From UHGV virus genome UHGV-1669581: DNA of 12,517 nt; one strand, written 5' to 3'. The first letter of the stretch is position 1. The number at the start of each line of letters is the position of its first letter. The notes beneath the pieces are model-generated. The model was not told the origin of the DNA and did no database searches. It saw only the letters and a list, made by a program, of their open reading frames with translations. This document shows positions 2,527-11,307 of the stretch, one piece after another. Both the position numbers and the translations under genes were made by a program. The DNA is from a virus.

Positions 2527-2986
2527 TTACCACCCCACCAGCCTCTTTAAACCGGGCAATCAGGTCACCGATTTTATGTTCATACTGACCGTAACCAGCG
2601 CCCGGCAGTGAAGCCCAGATATTGCTGCAACGATCGATAGCCTGACGAATATCGCCGCGATCAATCATCGGTAAAGCGCCACGCTCTTTAATCTGCTGCA
2701 ATGCCACAGCATCCTGGCTTTTTGGAGAGAAGTCTTTCAACCCAAGCTGCTTGCGGTAAGCATCCCACCAGCGTGAAAGAAGTTGATAACGGCCTGCAGC
2801 TGTTGATTTGAGTTTCGGGTTTAGCGTGACAAGTTTGCGAGGGTGATCGGAGTAATCAGTGAAGAGTTCTCCACCGACAATAACGTCATAACCGTGGTTA
2901 CGTGTCAGTTGTCGCCCGTTATCCGTTCCCTCTGACCATGCCACCATATCCAGGAAAGCTTTACGCTGGGAATTTAGTACCTGCAT
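2510..2986 (-). CDS. R: Endolysin, lambda R-type lytic transglycosylase
   Basis: 158 aa, near-collinear with lambda R as recalled (NSQRKAFLDM.AWSEGTDNGRQ.TRNHGYDVIVGGELFTDYSDHPRKLVTLNPKLKST.AGRYQLLSRWWDAYRKQLGLKDFSPKSQDAVALQQIKERGALPMIDRGDIRQAIDRCSNIWASLPGAGYGQ). Confidence 0.95.
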   Translation of the reverse strand: MQVLNSQRKAFLDMVAWSEGTDNGRQLTRNHGYDVIVGGELFTDYSDHPRKLVTLNPKLKSTAAGRYQLLSRWWDAYRKQLGLKDFSPKSQDAVALQQIKERGALPMIDRGDIRQAIDRCSNIWASLPGAGYGQYEHKIGDLIARFKEAGGVVNEVEL

Positions 2987-2989
2987 AAA

Positions 2990-3316
2990 TTACTCCTTAG
3001 AGCCACCAAACTTGTTACCGATTACTCTCATTGCAGCCCCACGAATAGCATCAACACCGATCAGCCCCACCCCACCACCAATGGCAACAGATAGTGATTT
3101 AGGCCATCCGACATACTCAAGAGCGGATGCAAAAGTCAGCGTCAGAGCGCCACAGAGTAGAATTTCGAGTGTTTTTCGCTTCCAGCCGCCACCACCGCCA
3201 AAATAGGCAATACGTAAACCAGCCATAACAATCGACATAATCACTGCGCCCAGCGGTGTGTCTCCACGCCACCAGCTCTGGACCAACTCCAGCCATGTAT
3301 TTGGGTTATGAGGCAT
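2990..3316 (-). CDS. S: Class I holin, lambda S-like
   Basis: 108 aa with three hydrophobic segments and a charged C-terminus. The pattern parallels lambda S (GAILAFAMAYLRGRYNGG...IIAWF... versus GAVIMSIVMAGLRIAYFGGGGG...). Sits directly upstream of R with a 3-nt gap. GAGGTGAGAG RBS. Confidence 0.82.
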   Translation of the reverse strand: MPHNPNTWLELVQSWWRGDTPLGAVIMSIVMAGLRIAYFGGGGGWKRKTLEILLCGALTLTFASALEYVGWPKSLSVAIGGGVGLIGVDAIRGAAMRVIGNKFGGSKE

Positions 3317-3454
3317 TTGTAGTTATCTCTCACCTCGCTGATACAGCAGGTGCAAATTGAGGAAACATCATGTACCGCAAATCAGAAGCGGAAACGTCAA
3401 AGAAGCCGAACCAATGGATAACTGCGGAATAGGCAAGGACCAACGAATCCCCAG

Positions 3455-3490
3455 CCCCAGAAACGACAAAACCCGCTCGACGGCGGGTTT
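3455..3490 (-). terminator. Rho-independent terminator-like hairpin (tR'-like position) between the moron and the holin
   Basis: Minus strand: AAACCCGC-cgtcga-GCGGGTTT followed by TGTCGTTTC. Perfect 8-bp inverted repeat at plus coords 3469..3490. Confidence 0.5.
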
Positions 3491-3582
3491 AAGCTGTGTG
3501 GCGAAGTAACCACTCTTAACACATTACATGATAAAATGCGGACCGCGTTAGTAATATTTTTCTCATATATTGGGTTCACTAC

Positions 3583-4329
3583 ATGCGACATAATTTTTCT
3601 AAAGACACTATAAAAAAATTAGCAGAGCGGGCAGCATTCATTTGTTCAAACCCTTCATGCCCTAGATTGACCATTGGCCCATCAATTGATGGCAATAAAT
3701 CAATCAAGACAGGAGTTGCTGCTCACATATGTGCAGCATCTCCTGATGGCCCACGCTATGACATGTCACAATCAGAAACAGAAAGGAAGTCAATTAACAA
3801 TGGCATATGGCTGTGTGCTACTTGTTCTGTATTAATAGATAAGAATCAGGGGCTAGACTATCCGGCACCTGTATTAAGAAAATGGAAAAAAGATCATGAA
3901 AGCCTTATAAGCTCCTGTCTTGAAGGTTCGATTAATATTACCTTCGATGCTTTGAAATATATTCAACAGCATGATGAAAGAAATCTGGCAAAAAAGATTA
4001 TAAATGAATTGGATGATAAAGGGGCTTTGTTCGTAGAATATCATCTTGAAAACCCCTGTTTTGTTGCCGAATCACTCAAAGAGTTAAGAACATGTTTGAC
4101 CTCTTTGCTTTCTCAAATCCCAGATGAATCACCTCTATTTATCGTTTGCAAGTCAATTCGAGAAGCATGCCGTTATTATATGAACAACACTTCTAAAGAC
4201 GCAGGGATTAAAGAGTTAGAATTTTCGTTGGGAGCTGTCAGAAAAATCGTAGGTATCAACGTTAAAAGAATATCAGAAACCTACGGGGTTAAACCTAGCC
4301 CACAATTATCTACCATAATGCCAGATTAA
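3583..4329 (+). CDS. HNH-like nuclease-domain protein with an uncharacterised C-terminal domain; AT-rich moron between Q and the holin (candidate accessory or defence gene)
   Basis: 248-aa ORF on the strand opposite the late genes, visibly AT-rich. The N-terminal ~110 aa carry a zinc-finger HNH-like signature: C21-x4-C26 (CSNPSC), AAH48ICAAS..GPR, N72/N73-G-I-W-L-C78-x2-C81. The C-terminal ~135 aa have no motif I recognise. Followed by its own hairpin terminator. Confidence 0.6.
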   Translation: MRHNFSKDTIKKLAERAAFICSNPSCPRLTIGPSIDGNKSIKTGVAAHICAASPDGPRYDMSQSETERKSINNGIWLCATCSVLIDKNQGLDYPAPVLRKWKKDHESLISSCLEGSINITFDALKYIQQHDERNLAKKIINELDDKGALFVEYHLENPCFVAESLKELRTCLTSLLSQIPDESPLFIVCKSIREACRYYMNNTSKDAGIKELEFSLGAVRKIVGINVKRISETYGVKPSPQLSTIMPD

Positions 4330-4338
4330 ATCTGTTAC

Positions 4339-4381
4339 GCAGCAACAAAGTTAAACTCTATGTTGCTGCCTTAATTTTATT
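4339..4381 (+). terminator. Rho-independent terminator of the moron gene
   Basis: GCAGCAACA-(13-nt loop)-TGTTGCTGC (9-bp stem at 4339..4347 / 4361..4369) followed by CTTAATTTTATT. Begins 10 nt after the moron stop and overlaps the 3' end of the Q gene on the other strand. Confidence 0.65.
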
Positions 4382-4745
4382 ACTCCATTTCTAAACGAAT
4401 ATCCAGCATCGAGAGACAACCATCTATAAACCCTTCAGCCAACTGTATCTCTATACGTATCAATTTCTCATCTTTTTTGTATGCTTTTGCTATCTTCCTT
4501 TTCGAGATGCCATACAGGTAATGAGCCACAATCAGAGAGTGCTCATACGGTTTTCTCTTCTTAAGAAGAGCAAGACAACCTTCAATAATTAATGCATCAC
4601 TATCTGAACAAGCCTGACGTGTTTTGCTTGTGTAGGGAAGAAGCCCCTTAAACCCAGCAGCTATAGGCGAATAGTCTACTCCAGAACTATCACTCGCCGC
4701 CCATGCTCCCCAACGCTCCAGAACCATCTGAATATCACGCATCAA
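4380..4745 (-). CDS. Late-gene antitermination protein Q-like (small, QuuD/DLP12-type)
   Basis: 121 aa, last gene of the early-right operon and immediately upstream of the lysis region. The N-terminus (MRDIQMVLERWGAWAA...AAGFKGL) matches my recollection of small Q-family antiterminators. Cys/His-containing. Confidence 0.6.
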   Translation of the reverse strand: MMRDIQMVLERWGAWAASDSSGVDYSPIAAGFKGLLPYTSKTRQACSDSDALIIEGCLALLKKRKPYEHSLIVAHYLYGISKRKIAKAYKKDEKLIRIEIQLAEGFIDGCLSMLDIRLEME

Positions 4746-4759
4746 CTTTCTCCACCAAA

Positions 4760-5755
4760 TCAGGCCAACACACCAATCGCCAGCGCGCGATCGATAAAAC
4801 GAAATATCAGCTCCAGTTGGGAGCCATACTTCTCTTCAAATGCCACGGTATCCGCATGCAGCTCGTCGTGATGCTTTCTGCACAAAGGCAACACAAAGAG
4901 GTCATGCGCTTTTGTACCCATTCCACCCTGACCGTGACCTATCAGGTGGTGGGGATCATCAGCAGGCTTTCCACAACATGCACACGGCTGTGTCTTAACC
5001 CAGCGCGTGTACTTTTCATTAACCCAGCGGCGGCGTTTTGGGCGTAACATAAAAGACTCCGGCGACTCCGGATCCACTTTCAGCGCCAGCACCTTTTTCG
5101 CCTTATCCTGGATGATGCTGGTGGCAGGAACCGAAGGCACAAGGTCACTTTCCCGGGTGACAGACGGCACAACAGGCTTCGGTAATCTCAGTGCCTTACG
5201 GGCTGCACTTTCCGGTAAGGCATCTGCCAGATCATTACGAATCAGCCACCAGCACAGTTCCGGCATTGTCACAACGTGACTATCATCAAAACCGAGATCC
5301 CGACGCACAACAGACAACACCCAGCGGGCACAGTTATCCGTTGCCATTGATTCCAGCCGTTCCGTGAACTGATCGCGAAGCTGGTTATCGCAGTGCCAGC
5401 ACAGACGGATTGCGCCCGGCGCGTGTCGCATTGTGGTCATATTCTCGCTGTGCCAGTCGGAATGAGGCCACTGGCAGCCTTTTTCACGAAGTAACCAGCT
5501 TTCAAGACATTCCACCCCACCAGCACGACGAATCACTGCCTCATTACGGAACACGGCCAGAACGGCAGGATCATCCGCCAGCGGTTGTGATGCCGCAGGA
5601 ACGGCACCACTGGCGAAAGATGAATAACGCTCCGGCTCAGGCTCCAGCAGAACACGCCCCTGCATAAACAGGGGCATCAGCTCTGAACCTGGCCTGAACA
5701 ATACGATCCCCATACGCGGGGCTATTTCAGGGGTCAGTAGTGCTCTCACGGTCAC
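4760..5755 (-). CDS. DUF968-like phage protein with a C-terminal HNH-like zinc-binding motif
   Basis: 331 aa. The C-terminus (PCACCGKPADDPHHLIGHGQGGMGTKAHDLFVLPLCRKHHDELH) is a Cys/His cluster typical of the DUF968/HNH-like proteins found upstream of Q in lambdoid prophages. 1-nt gap to the upstream KilA-N gene. Confidence 0.55.
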   Translation of the reverse strand: MTVRALLTPEIAPRMGIVLFRPGSELMPLFMQGRVLLEPEPERYSSFASGAVPAASQPLADDPAVLAVFRNEAVIRRAGGVECLESWLLREKGCQWPHSDWHSENMTTMRHAPGAIRLCWHCDNQLRDQFTERLESMATDNCARWVLSVVRRDLGFDDSHVVTMPELCWWLIRNDLADALPESAARKALRLPKPVVPSVTRESDLVPSVPATSIIQDKAKKVLALKVDPESPESFMLRPKRRRWVNEKYTRWVKTQPCACCGKPADDPHHLIGHGQGGMGTKAHDLFVLPLCRKHHDELHADTVAFEEKYGSQLELIFRFIDRALAIGVLA

Positions 5756-5756
5756 C

Positions 5757-6554
5757 TCAATGAACGGTATCGAGCAGCTTTAACAGCTCAGGGAATCGGG
5801 ATTCGAAGAAATGCGGCTGCGTCTCGCGCGGATTTGCGGGACTGGTGATGTTCTTGCCGAACATGCAGCCTTTCGCCGTCAGCGACCAGAATTTTTTAAT
5901 GTTGTTAATTGCGGTACGGCTGTATCGTTCGCGTTGTTCAACGATCCCCAGCTTCACCATCTGGTGATATGCCTGATTAGCCGTAAGGCGGATACCATAC
6001 TGTTTCAGCAGTGCACTCAGCGACAGCGTGGGGCGACTTGAGCCATCAGGCGCGTCAGCAGGAGCATCAATGGCATAGCGCGGTGCCAGATTCGGTAAGC
6101 CAACAGCCTCCTGAAGCTTCTGACAGGCTCCAAGCACTGATGAGTTAGACAGGTTTAATTCCCTGCGCATAAAGTCCAGCAGGATCACGCCAGCCTGCAT
6201 CTTGTCAGCAGCCTGCCCGGATATTTTTTCCGGTGTGCTGGTTACCATATCGAAAGTACGGATCACCTTCAGATGGAATGACGGGCTGATCCACATTGCA
6301 TAGGCATACACCAGTTCTTTGCAGACATACGTCCCCTGGTTATTTCCGCCACGAATAACGTTAACTGGCTCTATATTGACCGAGTTGCAAATCTGCAACT
6401 CGCTTATTAAACGTTCAGTTTGCTCATTGCGGAGCCAGAATGCAGGCTTATGCTTATCCAGAGAACCGGCAGCCCTGTGCAGATCGTTCAGGCTGTAACG
6501 CCCATAAGCATCACGACGAACTTCAATACCATCAATGACCATCAGATTATTCAT
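5757..6554 (-). CDS. KilA-N domain protein
   Basis: N-terminal region GRYSLNDLHRAAG...KPAFWLRNEQTERLISEL...GTYVCKELVYAYAMWISPSFHL fits KilA-N. The ATG at 6554 has a GAGGAG RBS 9 nt upstream and is preferred; the longer frame opens at 6587. Confidence 0.7.
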   Translation of the reverse strand: MNNLMVIDGIEVRRDAYGRYSLNDLHRAAGSLDKHKPAFWLRNEQTERLISELQICNSVNIEPVNVIRGGNNQGTYVCKELVYAYAMWISPSFHLKVIRTFDMVTSTPEKISGQAADKMQAGVILLDFMRRELNLSNSSVLGACQKLQEAVGLPNLAPRYAIDAPADAPDGSSRPTLSLSALLKQYGIRLTANQAYHQMVKLGIVEQRERYSRTAINNIKKFWSLTAKGCMFGKNITSPANPRETQPHFFESRFPELLKLLDTVH

Positions 6555-6573
6555 ACTTCGTTTCTCCTCTTGA

Positions 6574-6963
6574 TCAGGCGGCTGCACCCGCCGGTTTCTC
6601 GTACTTACTGATAGTGATCTCGACCTTCCCTTCCGGGATAACCGGTCCCCACTCCACCAACATTCTTTTCACTTGGCTGTCGTCTTCCCACACACCCGCG
6701 TAGGTCAGGGCGTCAAACAGCGCCTTGTTATAGTTGTCCAGATCGCGGATCCGGTTATCCGGAGGAAACAACACGATCTCCACTGAAGCAGGTGCCGACG
6801 TTGGTTTCGGCAGACGACGTAACTGCTCAACTATTGCTGCGCACGCTGCGCTCTGGAATTTTCGCCCCGCCGCGCTTATCAGGCTCTTACCAGCAAACGC
6901 CCCTTTGTTGGGGTGTCGCCAGTACGTGTTCACGCTGGGCGGAAAAGGCAGGATCAGCTTCAT
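6574..6963 (-). CDS. rusA: RusA-family Holliday junction resolvase
   Basis: LPFPPSVNTYWRH and PDNRIRDLDNYNKALFDALTYAGVWEDDSQV match the RusA signature ([44 protein letters not shown]). ATGA start/stop overlap with the upstream gene. Confidence 0.9.
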   Translation of the reverse strand: MKLILPFPPSVNTYWRHPNKGAFAGKSLISAAGRKFQSAACAAIVEQLRRLPKPTSAPASVEIVLFPPDNRIRDLDNYNKALFDALTYAGVWEDDSQVKRMLVEWGPVIPEGKVEITISKYEKPAGAAA

Positions 6964-7936: not shown

Positions 7937-8430
7937 TAAGCCCCCACGTAATTCCCTGAGAGATACCACTCTTCACCTGATGCAGCCCGCTTACTGCTTT
8001 TCCGTAAACACCGTTCACGACGCGCCAGAAAATTGTTTCGTTCTGGCTGGGAGTGGCTTTCACGGAATGCCGCCATCCACACCGTTGCAGCACGACGGTA
8101 TAAGCCCCTGGACTCCAGTTCTTCCGCCTGGCGGGTCAGGCACAAAATCACCCGCGGGTCGTTAGTGCCGACATAGAAATTGCGCACAGGTCTGGTTTCA
8201 CGAACTGGTTGTGGTTCCGGATCCTGCGCTCTCTCAGTCAGGCGCGGGAAATGTCTGTGTGTATCTCCTTCACAACGGTGAGCCACACGCCCACTCTGAC
8301 GTAGCTTGCTTGCTGACTGCAGAACGCGCTGCCGTGAGTAACCTGCAAAAGCATCCGCAATGTCTCCGGAAGTACAGCCCGGATGGGCTTCAATGAATTT
8401 CTGAACGTCGTTCAAAAGACTCATGCTCAC
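7936..8430 (-). CDS. PerC-like regulator domain protein (C-terminal PerC/Pch-like motif, N-terminal extension)
   Basis: The C-terminal half contains AEELESRGLYRRAATVWMAAF, resembling the PerC/Pch family signature (EKLE.KGLWRRAA.RW) as I recall it. 164 aa; ATGA overlap with the upstream replication gene. Confidence 0.5.
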   Translation of the reverse strand: MSMSLLNDVQKFIEAHPGCTSGDIADAFAGYSRQRVLQSASKLRQSGRVAHRCEGDTHRHFPRLTERAQDPEPQPVRETRPVRNFYVGTNDPRVILCLTRQAEELESRGLYRRAATVWMAAFRESHSQPERNNFLARRERCLRKSSKRAASGEEWYLSGNYVGA

Positions 8431-9368
8431 CCCCTGAATCCTGCCGGGATCTGGCTGTAGTCCACATTGTCGTAACTGGCTTTGAAGTACGGGTCTTCGC
8501 GTTTTTCTGTGTACGTGCTGACGGACGGCGATAAGCGCAGAGAAAGCTCATCCCATTTTTCCCGCAGCTTCGACGGGCTGAGCACGTTACGGCACCAGAA
8601 CGGATCGCGGCTGACGCGGCTGTACATCTCGCAGATTTGTTTGTGAGTACGACCATCCTGCACACACATCAGGCGAATTTCGTTTGCCCAGGCTGTCCAG
8701 TTCGGTTCTTTGGGACGAACCACCTCGCCGTCACATTCGGCAGCCTGCTCGTACAGGGCGATGATTTTTTTCCAGAGCCACTGTGCGCAGGTCAAATCAT
8801 CCTGCGTCCCCCACTGGCGCTTTTTAGGGCTGAATACAACCGCATCAGGATGGCGAGTTAAAAAATCCTGTTCAGCCGTCTGCGTGTCCGGTTGCGAAGC
8901 GTCCGGACGAGAAGGTTTTTTATCTGACGGATCATGTTTTGATTTTACTGACGGATCCCCGCCAGATTCTGACGGGTGAAAACCCGCTTTTTTGCCAGAT
9001 TTCGACGCATCAAATTTTGACGGGTCAGATTTTGATGCGTCAGATTTTGACGGGTCAGAATCTGACAGTTGAGAAAATGCCGCTGCCTGAAGCTTCGCAA
9101 CGTTAAGCTGATAAACATTCGACGCATTGCGGTTACCCTGGCGACGCGCCTTACGCGTTAACCAGCCTTCTGCTTCCAGCCGTGCGATAGCCGTTCTGAC
9201 GGTACTCATCCCCGCGCCAATCTGACGGGCAATAGTTTCAATTGATGGCCAGCACACACCTTCGTCATTACTGAAATCAGCCAGGCGGGCCATAATTGCC
9301 ACGCTGGATAATTTCATGCCTGATGCAGCGCAACCATCCCATACATAGCCGGTTAATTTAGTGCTCAT
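8427..9368 (-). CDS. Replication initiator protein with N-terminal HTH (O-like), carrying internal iterons
   Basis: N-terminus (SSVAIMARLADFSNDEGVCWPSIETIARQIGAGMSTVRTAIARLEAEGWL) matches the replication-protein HTH pattern common in prophages. The central low-complexity tract (SDSDPSKSDASKSDPSKFDASKSGKK) is encoded by tandem DNA repeats. Confidence 0.75.
   Translation of the reverse strand: MSTKLTGYVWDGCAASGMKLSSVAIMARLADFSNDEGVCWPSIETIARQIGAGMSTVRTAIARLEAEGWLTRKARRQGNRNASNVYQLNVAKLQAAAFSQLSDSDPSKSDASKSDPSKFDASKSGKKAGFHPSESGGDPSVKSKHDPSDKKPSRPDASQPDTQTAEQDFLTRHPDAVVFSPKKRQWGTQDDLTCAQWLWKKIIALYEQAAECDGEVVRPKEPNWTAWANEIRLMCVQDGRTHKQICEMYSRVSRDPFWCRNVLSPSKLREKWDELSLRLSPSVSTYTEKREDPYFKASYDNVDYSQIPAGFRG
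8921..9069. repeat. Iteron-like tandem direct repeats (~15-bp period, ~8 copies) inside the replication initiator gene; putative origin
   Basis: Units such as CAGATTCTGACGGGTG, CAGATTTCGACGCATC, AAATTTTGACGGGTC, AGATTTTGATGCGTC, AGATTTTGACGGGTC, AGAATCTGACAGTT. Analogous to ori-lambda iterons inside gene O. Confidence 0.6.
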
Positions 9369-10614: not shown

Positions 10615-11307
10615 ATGAACATAGGAAACCGAGTCAGACAACTTCGCCAAGCGAAGAACATGAAAATCGCCGATCTCGCTGAAGCAATAGGAGTAGATGC
10701 GGCGAACATCTCGCGCTTAGAAACGGGTAAGCAAAAACAATTTACCGAACAAACACTGAGTAATATTGCCAAGAGCTTAGGTGTTGATATTGCTGATCTC
10801 TTTACCTCTGCCCACAAAAGTAATACTGTATATAAAAACAGTAATAATGAGGATGTTGCGCAGGTGAAGGATGTGTTCCGTATTGAAATGCTGGATATCA
10901 GTGCCAGTGCGGGAAATGGCCTTATCCAGGGCGGTGATGTCATTGATGTGATTCATGCCATCGAATACAGAACTGATAATGCTGTATCAATGTTCGGCGG
11001 ACGACCAGCCAATCACATCAAAGTTATCAACGTTCGTGGGGACAGTATGTGTCCAACCATTGAGCCAGGAGATCTCATCTTCGTTGATGTCAGCATCAAT
11101 CAGTTTGATGGTGATGGTATATATGTCTTTGGTTTTGATGACAAAATATACGTTAAAAGACTTCAAATGATTCCTGACAAACTGCTGGTGATTTCTGATA
11201 ACCAGATTTACCGTGAATGGGGAATTACTAGCGAAAACGAACACCGATTCATGGTCTTTGGAAAGGTCTTAATCAGTCAGTCGCAAACCCTTAAGAGACA
11301 TAATTAA
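10615..11307 (+). CDS. cI: CI-type prophage repressor (N-terminal HTH, C-terminal S24 LexA-like autopeptidase)
   Basis: HTH (MKIADLAEAIGVDAANISRLETGK) plus an S24 domain with catalytic Ser in VRGDSMCPTIEPGD and Lys in KIYVKRL. A candidate Ala-Gly cleavage site lies in ASAGNG. Confidence 0.9.
   Translation: MNIGNRVRQLRQAKNMKIADLAEAIGVDAANISRLETGKQKQFTEQTLSNIAKSLGVDIADLFTSAHKSNTVYKNSNNEDVAQVKDVFRIEMLDISASAGNGLIQGGDVIDVIHAIEYRTDNAVSMFGGRPANHIKVINVRGDSMCPTIEPGDLIFVDVSINQFDGDGIYVFGFDDKIYVKRLQMIPDKLLVISDNQIYREWGITSENEHRFMVFGKVLISQSQTLKRHN

Follow-up and report, generated by a model that had tools for sequence, protein, structure and literature searches.

In phage lambda, a sigma-dependent pause mechanism has been described (PMC5001585). 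In Stx phages, a constitutive short RNA named StxS is produced from pR'-tR' as a 258 nt transcript that is processed to 74 nt (PMC7547250), and a survey of Stx prophages reports several that are without the known pR' site (PMC6266700). In the qsr' region of prophage DLP12 from E. coli K-12 the order is quuD, nmpC::IS5, late promoter, essD, rrrD and rzpD, and the spacer between nmpC and essD has been described merely as a 'promoter island' (PMC3661553). Phage 434B, carrying Q, late promoter and lysis genes from DLP12, is plaque-forming (PMC9119081), and a layout in which Q and the late promoter are split therefore works.

The window analysed here is a stretch of 12,517 nucleotides from the virus genome UHGV-1669581. 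It has the setting of an E. coli lambdoid prophage, in which a QuuD-type Q gene is followed by a cargo gene in reverse orientation, a late module and the lysis genes. Judging from the sequence, the most likely position of the late promoter is the ~90 bp just before a terminator hairpin, downstream of the inserted nuclease-like cargo gene. This layout is common to many related phages, K-12 prophage DLP12 included, and is therefore ordinary. On this reading, the late promoter is neither lost nor displaced, and there is no antisense conflict with late transcription.

Gene order from Q to the lysis genes

The Q antiterminator gene is located at 4380..4742 on the minus strand (120 aa from ATG 4742) and belongs to the QuuD-type subfamily of the Q21 family. 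The open reading frame as mechanically called spans 4380..4745 and starts with TTG 4745; since homologues begin with MRDIQ, ATG 4742 is likely the true start. The protein gives a full-length match to PF06530 in Pfam (E 1.9e-52), placing a Q-family gene upstream of the module on the same strand, and a distant match to the Q21 structures 6P18 and 6JNX (E 9e-5). It is 94% identical to Q of phage cdtI and 83–86% identical to Q of SfIV and mEp390.

The ORF calls bear out the end of Q at 4380 (minus strand) given in the initial annotation. The cargo gene described there as a moron, reaching down to 3583 and having a terminator of its own near the end of Q, was recovered as a plus-strand ORF at 3583..4329 together with a hairpin at 4339-4369. 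The coordinates of a strong minus-strand hairpin at 3469..3490 hold as well, and the interval between hairpin and cargo start, counted as about 90 bp, measures 92 bp (3491..3582). The sequence thus has the order Q, cargo gene, module and tR', with the cargo gene separating Q from the tR'-like terminator as had been noted. The first late gene after tR' is a holin (2990..3316, minus strand; PF05106, E 5.7e-25), located in a region with 91–97% nucleotide identity to SfIV/SfII. It is followed by a lysin at 2510-2986 and then Rz at 2065-2526. A search against Rfam gave no family matches anywhere in the window.

In lambda and phage 21, the distance from the Q stop to the start of the -35 is ~40 nt and ~6 nt, respectively. 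By analogy, pR' would be expected to follow Q directly, inside or beside 4329-4380, and the stretch 4370-4383 is AT-rich. Late transcription would then run antisense through the entire cargo gene, ending in head-on collision. We consider this extremely improbable. In all phages examined, the stop codon of Q is directly followed by sequence specific to the cargo, which argues that no conserved promoter lies there, and the hairpin following the stop is wholly different in phages with near-identical Q (cdtI, 94%; mEp390, 86%). Furthermore, the scan found no promoter-like site on the minus strand at this place, and what abuts Q in relatives without an interruption is the element found here at 3461-3561.

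With pR' placed at 3461-3561, the earlier claim that the moron is transcribed against late transcription had to be given up. The cargo gene is located upstream of pR' and diverges from it, with the predicted late start ~70 bp beyond the cargo 5' end, and late transcription would therefore proceed without crossing the cargo gene. The cargo gene would be convergent with Q and divergent from the late operon, and antisense crossing would occur only by early pR transcription through Q, as expected after induction. In the lysogen, where pR is repressed, the cargo gene would be situated in a stretch otherwise expected to be untranscribed.

The probable late regulatory module

A comparison of about 130 related loci makes it likely that this QuuD-type lambdoid prophage has its late regulatory module at 3461-3561 on the minus strand, with pR', a candidate Q-binding element (QBE), a candidate pause element and tR'. 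This agrees with one of the options put forward in the initial annotation, that pR'/qut is squeezed into 3491..3582. What the comparison establishes is the anatomy and conservation of the module, its covariation with Q clades and the repeated occurrence of the layout. In phages lacking an insert, such as PhiR49_2, 1720a-02 and PhiR5_1, the module begins within ~12 bases of the Q stop, and 38–44 nt separate the stop from an invariant core, TGTTAAGRGTGGT, which is retained even in diverged modules. Similarity to the no-insert phages starts at an A-tract (3557..3561, minus strand) that forms the upstream edge of the module and lies at about -47..-43 of pR', the position of a UP-element proximal subsite. 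The A-rich columns -45..-41 carry 0.4–1.2 bits of information in 39 distinct variants.

Promoter prediction and alignment had both been suggested for 3490..3600, and only the latter was productive: prediction gave chance-level scores, whereas alignment with the modules of relatives revealed the conserved module. A consensus promoter scan of 3300-3600 found no promoter, and a PWM scan of both strands gave chance-level scores only, so that neither pR' nor the cargo promoter can be located on a single sequence.

The proposed -10 hexamer of pR' is TAATGT (3521..3526, minus strand), which has the signature TAnnnT. It matches the -10 consensus in three of six positions, and the sequence at -35..-30, AACGCG, is not -35-like. 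Among the 39 distinct upstream variants, T-12 is present in 37 and both A-11 and T-7 in all 39, whereas -10..-8 are variable; within a 16-nt stretch, strong conservation is confined to these three positions and the remainder varies. None of the signature columns had been preset in the search pattern, which did prescribe -6..+13; invariance of that stretch among the viral_contigs loci is thus by construction. An alternative -10 of the TATCAT type at -17..-12 was rejected in spite of its better score in this prophage; its A is found in only 24 of the 39 variants, and the functional DLP12 module does not have this hexamer.

The weak -35 and the chance-level PWM score would also fit a module that consists of a leader and a terminator but has no promoter. 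Expression of the late genes would then depend on read-through from pR, and the palindrome described below would bind some other factor or act as a small hairpin signal on the plus strand, where the scan flags 3535-3549 as terminator-like. Conservation of TAnnnT at a fixed distance from the invariant core makes this very unlikely, as does the palindrome, whose type tracks the Q clade exactly and which is also present in phages without plus-strand cargo. In the clade of this prophage its stem has only 4 bp and a 1-nt loop. Furthermore, the architecture parallels the experimentally defined cassette of phage 21.

If the module does contain pR', a sigma-70 promoter with its -10 at 3526-3521 would start transcription near 3514 (predicted start A 3514, range 3512-3518). 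The hexamer AAGAGT (3512..3517, minus strand) is a candidate sigma-dependent pause element; from the -10 to the terminator region, no other hexamer combines an A in second place with a T in sixth. The initial transcribed stretch, AAGAGTGG-TTACTTCGC, resembles the lambda sequence from pR' +1, AACGATGGGTTAATTCGC, including an AAnnnT pause element and a downstream TTCG. The candidate overlaps the predicted start (-3..+3), whereas the pause elements are found at +1..+6 in lambda and at +2..+8 in phage 21, and either the start or the pause geometry thus differs from the models. At this overlapping AAGAGT, sigma would re-engage and RNA polymerase would pause at ~+12.

The intrinsic terminator tR' (3461..3490, minus strand) is supported by terminator scan, fold and conservation. 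It consists of a hairpin at 3490-3469, AAACCCGC-CGTCGA-GCGGGTTT, and a U tract, TGTCGTTTC. Its stem of 8 pairs is the longest among five terminator-like sites in 2900-5000, where 1.7 are expected by chance, and the 57-nt RNA folds with -19.6 kcal/mol (z -2.7). It is kept in more than 100 related loci, while distant relatives have different hairpins, some of them further downstream. The terminator is located between the proposed promoter and the holin (start 3316), and would end an RNA of ~50 nt unless Q has modified the polymerase. For the DLP12 equivalent, with a predicted +1 at MG1655 577,229, no entry for a mapped start or 3' end was found in the supplements of three E. coli transcriptome papers (PMC7815308, PMC10301672 and PMC7876045).

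A palindrome matching the Q clade

The related QuuD-type loci encode five clades of Q, with differences mostly in the helix-turn-helix region. Centred at -28 of the module is a palindrome, GCGGTCCGC (3538..3546, minus strand). Five types of palindrome occupy this place, with centres from -27.5 to -28.5, and they match the five Q clades in all 104 classified loci; the types include GCGGTCCGC in this prophage, GCGTACGC in clade B and TTTACGTACGTAAA in DLP12. The cargo between Q and the palindrome varies, and clade A has 12 or more different gap sizes. Since the palindrome covaries with the Q clade without exception, it is a candidate Q-binding element, although the association could partly be due to linkage rather than recognition. 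The palindrome centre is located 24 bp upstream of TAAG; in phage 21, the upstream subsite of the QBE lies at 25.5 bp. We propose that Q, although encoded at a distance from pR', reaches it in trans by docking at the Q-class-specific palindrome at 3546-3538. Binding of Q to this site is a prediction drawn from sequence comparison, as are the start site, the pause and the mode of cargo expression.

The cargo gene

The cargo gene (3583..4329, plus strand) encodes a DUF6650 protein of 248 aa, whose N-terminal part carries an HNH (beta-beta-alpha-metal) nuclease motif and whose C-terminal domain is helical. Homologues of the protein carry PF20355 (DUF6650); a Pfam scan of the protein itself was empty at E 0.01, and cargo proteins had no matches in NCBIfam. 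In PADLOC, residues 1-130 match PDC-M68A (7.5e-27) as well as the HNH domains of SduA and of CBASS/SAVED-HNH effectors, with the HNH effector profiles scoring 1e-9 to 1e-21. In 20 sequences, with identities down to 41%, residues C21, C26, H48, N73, C78, C81, D86 and N88 never vary. The Cys4 zinc knuckle and the catalytic His/Asn residues are kept across the family, a mark of HNH proteins. An AlphaFold2 model is confident for the C-terminal helical domain only (pLDDT 35–59 for residues 1-100), and its best matches in PDB all fell short of E 0.001, none being informative. A full PDC-M68 system was not found at the locus; of the 253 positions in the PDC-M68A profile only 1-130 are matched, and a second cargo gene is absent. 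The cargo is probably a defence gene.

The GC content is 36–38% over ~3550-4600, compared to ~50% in the flanks. This fits an acquired cargo, with the caveat that the 3' part of Q is equally low. The gene is missing from relatives L001-L003 and from five further loci, and other genes are found instead in 95 loci. Patchy presence at the same position, together with the deviating base composition, is consistent with a moron. Transposition was rejected as origin of the cargo, as flanking direct repeats were not found, and recombination in the conserved flanks is therefore the more likely route of exchange. We suggest that the 0.86-kb segment from the Q stop to the module was acquired horizontally, and consists of one DUF6650/HNH gene and its own terminator.

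This terminator (4339..4383, plus strand; inverted repeat I6) is made up of a hairpin and a U-rich tail that overlaps the Q stop codon. The hairpin at 4339-4369 has 9+2 bp, and on the plus strand CUUAAUUUUAUUAC comes after it. The plus-strand fold has -18 kcal/mol (z -4.5), with none of 200 shuffles as good. On the minus strand the U tract is absent, and the hairpin is thus essentially the cargo's own terminator, as expected for a moron. Relatives have different hairpins at the equivalent place right after Q, and the pair in mEp390 is annotated as terminators.

Only ~21 bp of cargo-specific DNA separate the cargo ATG (3583) from the module edge (3561), and the cargo promoter must therefore overlap the upstream region of pR'. 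The best candidate (3528..3557, plus strand) is weak, with a putative -35 ATGATA at 3528-3533, an 18-nt spacer containing the palindrome, a -10 TAATAT at 3552-3557 and a predicted start at ~3564. Its PWM score of 7.0 is reached by chance ~1.8 times per kb per strand. Two further DUF6650 loci, L135 and L137, have a similar -10-like hexamer beside the palindrome (AAATAT and TAATTT, respectively).

These observations would allow an addition to the module described above, in which pR' and the cargo promoter are arranged back-to-back, overlap and share the palindrome, and in which paused polymerase or bound Q shuts the nuclease gene off at the start of late expression. Such inverse coupling was the other option put forward in the initial annotation. 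We regard this as rather unlikely. The candidate scores at chance level, the -35 spacing is lost in L137 (20 nt), and other cargo types have 200–400 bp of their own upstream DNA, which argues that such coupling is not general to the hotspot. A combined reading, in which QuuD-type Q loads at a symmetric clade-specific palindrome at the -35 position of pR' and in which this same site, Q-bound or with polymerase paused at pR', also switches the HNH cargo off as the late genes turn on, is decidedly unlikely.

A hotspot between Q and pR'

Cargo is present at the Q-pR' junction in 97 of the 105 related loci, nearly always in reverse orientation. In the QuuD-type Q subfamily, Q and pR' are more often apart than adjacent, and such a gap is not unusual. 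Other cargo at the junction includes nmpC/lc porin, Kiwa, PDC-S20 and PDC-M53, with PADLOC matches to Kiwa KwaB (2.3e-150), PDC-S20 (2.1e-176), PDC-M53 and an OLD/Gabija-like ATPase. The lc porin gene of phage PA-2 presumably occupies the same position as nmpC of DLP12. DUF6650 homologues at 85% and 60% identity are found in the same niche, next to diverged modules. The Q-pR' junction of QuuD-type lambdoid prophages can thus be viewed as a cargo and defence hotspot, which is of relevance when defence candidates such as DUF6650 are picked for testing.

About half of the complete E. coli genomes contain a match to the module region in one version or another. For annotation of QuuD-type prophages, the rule would be to look for TGTTAAGRGTGGT upstream of the holin. 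The comparison also yields a testable map of a poorly defined pR', with its -10, pause element and candidate Q-binding site, and is relevant to sequence-based prediction of Stx or late-gene expression.

Comparison with known systems

The pR'/qut/6S RNA/tR' region of lambda follows the same logic as the module. However, lambda Q belongs to an unrelated family, lambda has a good -35 (TTGACT), and its RNA is 194 nt long compared to ~50 nt predicted here. StxS similarly ends at tR' upstream of the late genes. Homology to StxS was rejected on account of its different sequence and Q clade, and the likeness is one of analogy only.

Phage 21 (Q21/pR'21; structures 6P18-6P1C and 6JNX; annotated in OL657228) has a Q of the same Pfam family, and its promoter, QBE, pause element and terminator are compact within ~90 bp, as their proposed counterparts are here. 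The annotated pause element, TAAGCTG, begins with TAAG, which is also present in our module, and the upstream QBE subsite, ~25 bp upstream of the pause element, is placed like the palindrome centre. The two differ in that cargo intervenes here after the Q stop, and in that the QBE of phage 21 is a direct repeat (ATTGAGCA/AATGAGCA) at -27..-12, between consensus -35 and -10, whereas a palindrome is found here. Q21 has 162 aa and a long loop in the helix-turn-helix, which is missing from the 120-aa Q of this prophage.

The Shigella and E. coli phages SfII, SfIV, cdtI, mEp390 and Stx2a_1447 have the same order of Dam, LexA-like, RusA, KilA-N, DUF968 and Q, followed by reverse cargo, module, holin, lysin and Rz, and their modules are 88–98% identical to the one described here. 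Their cargo differs, exemplified by PDC-M53 in SfII, unknown proteins and IS1 in SfIV, and two unknown genes in cdtI. In contrast to this prophage, SfII and Stx2a_1447 have a clade-B Q and the palindrome GCGTACGC.

DLP12, whose qsr' region is also present in phage 434B, shares with this prophage a QuuD-type Q, a reverse cargo gene that separates Q from the late module, and the same invariant core, TGTTAAGAGTGGTTACTTCG..., with tR' directly upstream of the holin. Its Q is 51% identical to the one here, and its palindrome, TTTACGTACGTAAA, is a different one, the left arm of which is also -35-like. The cargo of DLP12 is a porin rather than a DUF6650/HNH protein, and has ~400 bp of upstream DNA compared to ~21 bp here. 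In DLP12, the distance from quuD to the module is 2.9 kb, across nmpC::IS5.

Gene content of the prophage

The window is a lambdoid prophage with its early-right and lysis genes on the minus strand. ORF listing and Pfam scans revealed a cI-like repressor (10615–11307, plus strand), cro/cII-like genes, an O-like replication gene (8427–9368) and, on the minus strand, RusA (6574–6963), a KilA-N protein (5757–6587), a DUF968 (YdfU-like) protein directly upstream of Q (4760–5755), Q itself (4380–4745; PF06530, E 1.9e-52) and a holin (2990–3316), then lysin and Rz. A cargo ORF of 248 aa (3583–4329) lies on the plus strand. Within the replication gene, 4.3 copies of a 15-nt tandem repeat (8996–9059, consensus CAGATTTTGACGGGT) resemble origin iterons, as in lambda O. 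The ORF listing starts Q mechanically at TTG 4745 (MMRDIQ...), but nearly all homologues begin MRDIQ or MRDMY, so translation probably begins at ATG 4742 (120 aa). The DUF968 protein also matches the HNH-nuclease profile HNHc_6 (E 4e-6), and Q is flanked by two HNH-type proteins, this one and the cargo protein.

The region 3400–4450 (1051 bp) was found in 24 of 5,426 complete E. coli genomes at 99.9–100% identity. Shigella phages SfII and SfIV and E. coli phage cdtI are the closest in sequence and gene order.

Probable location of the late promoter

In a megablast search with 3300–4800, phages PhiR49_2, 1720a-02, PPyecE_EH1910 and PhiR5_1 matched in two pieces, the Q gene and window 3468–3600. 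The pieces are contiguous in the four phages' own genomes, where a conserved module starts within about 12 bases of the Q stop codon. On this comparison the equivalent module in the window is 3461–3561 (minus strand), and the intervening 0.86 kb is an insertion. When IMG/VR was scanned for the module core, GTTAAGAGTGGTTACTTCG, 120 loci were returned. With other related loci already collected and the window itself counted in, 105 have an identifiable Q upstream. Q lies 38–44 nt from the core in only 8 of the 105, and 620–2,920 bp separate the two in the other 97, with opposite-strand ORFs there in nearly every case. Right after the Q stop codon, the hairpin changes from phage to phage, also between those with 86–94% identical Q, and no conserved promoter was found there across the compared phages.

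The initial annotation had noted that about 90 bp separate the cargo ATG from a strong minus-strand hairpin. Its coordinates are all correct (the gap is 92 bp), and its first suggestion, that pR'/qut is squeezed into 3491–3582, appears to be borne out by the related phages. Its view that the cargo gene is transcribed against late transcription is not supported: the gene lies upstream of, and divergent from, pR', which keeps it clear of late transcription. Antisense crossing would come only from transcription from pR through Q.

The hairpin at 3490–3469 has the longest stem (8 pairs) among five terminator-like sites in 2900–5000, where 1.7 sites are expected by chance. Between Q and the plus-strand ORF, the hairpin at 4339–4369 has a U-rich tail on the plus-strand reading only; it is therefore the terminator of the cargo gene and not a good one for Q transcripts. 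A minus-strand ORF of 64 aa (3397–3591) covers the entire pR'/tR' module, and a 'hypothetical protein' is annotated over the equivalent stretch in several phage records. Because the stretch is conserved in a regulatory pattern, this ORF is almost certainly spurious.

Proposed anatomy of the pR' module

When 39 distinct upstream variants were aligned on the module core, a 16-nt stretch was variable except for a T (37/39), an A (39/39) and a T (39/39), spaced TAnnnT, none of these columns being fixed by the search pattern. The TAnnnT pattern is typical of sigma-70 −10 hexamers. This conservation gives TAATGT (3526–3521, minus strand) as the predicted pR' −10 hexamer, with transcription predicted to begin at the A at 3514. 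No −35-like hexamer was found in the window's Q clade, in which AACGCG occupies −35 to −30; an A-tract lies at about −47 to −43. Promoter scores on the window sequence alone are at chance level; it is the comparison that supports the promoter, not the window sequence itself.

The sequence after the −10, AAGAGTGGTTACTTCGC, resembles the lambda pR' transcript start, AACGATGGGTTAATTCGC. In lambda, the sigma-dependent pause element is AACGAT and the pause comes at +16 (PMC5001585). The pause element of phage 21 is annotated as TAAGCTG. From these resemblances, AAGAGT (3517–3512, minus strand) is the likely pause element. It would overlap the predicted start, whereas the element lies at +1 to +6 in lambda and +2 to +8 in phage 21, and the model is weakest here. 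With AAGAGT overlapping the start, sigma would be captured when the RNA is about 9 nt long, and the pause would come near +12. The core TGTTAAGRGTGGT is kept in modules with diverged downstream sequence and terminator, found in mEp390, a Klebsiella aerogenes prophage and another E. coli prophage.

The predicted pR' RNA is about 50 nt long and has a small hairpin at its 5' end, followed by the terminator. The hairpin has 5 bp (GUGGU-UACUUC-GCCAC; 3498–3513, minus strand; +2 to +17), its stretch is invariant across Q clades, and in one related locus (L137) the pairing is preserved with G-U replacing G-C. By analogy with StxS, the short RNA could have its own role.

A palindrome as candidate Q-binding element

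The palindrome GCGGTCCGC (3546–3538, minus strand), a candidate QBE, is centred at −28. Related loci have a palindrome in the same place (centres −27.5 to −28.5), of five different kinds: GCGGnCCGC, GCGTACGC, TTTACGTACGTAAA (in DLP12), TTTACAATCGTAAA and TGTTATAACA. These match five Q-protein clades in all 104 classified loci. Differences between the clades are concentrated in the helix-turn-helix region, which in alignment corresponds to the DNA-reading helices of Q21. Mere linkage could also pair Q with its palindrome, but the association persists despite repeated exchange of the intervening DNA, clade A alone having at least 12 insert sizes between the two, which favours recognition. The palindrome is thus a candidate for recognition by Q, argued for rather than proven.

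The cargo gene and the Q/pR' junction

The cargo protein belongs to DUF6650, the name used in one RefSeq record. A Pfam-A scan of the protein gave no match at E 0.01, although its homologues all have a precomputed PF20355 assignment. Residues 1–130 match the candidate defence protein PDC-M68A (7.5e-27) and the HNH nuclease domains of CBASS/SAVED-HNH effectors and SduA, and the residues of the catalytic motif (C21, C26, H48, N73, C78, C81, D86, N88) do not vary among homologues as distant as 41% identity. A helical domain, modelled with confidence, makes up the C-terminal half; no informative structural match to it was found. Homologues at 85% and 60% identity occupy the same niche in other prophages. 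The GC content of the cargo is 36–38%, and no flanking repeats suggesting transposition were found.

In QuuD-type lambdoid prophages the Q/pR' junction is a hotspot for cargo: 97 of 105 loci carry 0.6–2.9 kb of diverse genes there, nearly always reverse-oriented. These include Kiwa (KwaA/KwaB; KwaB 2.3e-150), PDC-S20 (PifA-like, 2.1e-176), PDC-M53, an OLD/Gabija-like ATPase beside a C5 methyltransferase predicted by sequence inspection, a weak NYN-like match (E 5e-4) and the nmpC/lc porin. Judged by this context, a defence role of the window's cargo is likely. The Q clade with palindrome TGTTATAACA carries, between Q and module, a 214-aa ORF in forward orientation (L020, L033, L042, L083, L100); no other cargo among the loci compared is exclusively forward-oriented.

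Upstream of the cargo ATG, just 21 bp or so are cargo-specific, and the cargo promoter must therefore share DNA with the region upstream of pR'. The best candidate, ATGATA (3528–3533) and TAATAT (3552–3557) with the palindrome in their 18-nt spacer, scores no better than chance. Other cargo kinds have hundreds of bp of their own upstream DNA. The second suggestion of the initial annotation, an overlap of pR'/qut with the moron promoter that would couple moron expression inversely to late transcription, may apply here but is less likely to do so than the first.

Comparison with known systems

The observation behind the initial annotation is real and its question sensible; the answer is ordinary. 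The map that the comparison gives for this pR' class, with its predicted −10, putative pause element and clade-specific palindromic candidate QBE, goes slightly beyond the literature consulted. Several prophages in a survey of Stx prophages were reported to lack the known pR' site (PMC6266700).

The palindrome centre lies 24 bp upstream of the putative pause element, compared with 25.5 bp for the upstream Q21 subsite, whose protomer forms the RNA-exit nozzle. The Q21 QBE is a direct repeat between consensus −35 and −10, whereas here it would be a palindrome, and the shorter Q proteins here are without the long helix-turn-helix loop of Q21.

The arrangement in the window is one more case of a widespread, long-known layout, with a new occupant. 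K-12 DLP12 has the order quuD, a reverse-oriented and IS5-interrupted porin gene (nmpC), the same module and essD. The lc porin gene of phage PA-2, reportedly described in the 1980s, has the same place and orientation as nmpC. Phage 434B, in which the Q gene, late promoter and lysis genes are replaced by the DLP12 segment, forms plaques (PMC9119081), so a QuuD-type Q drives late expression from a module 2.9 kb away.
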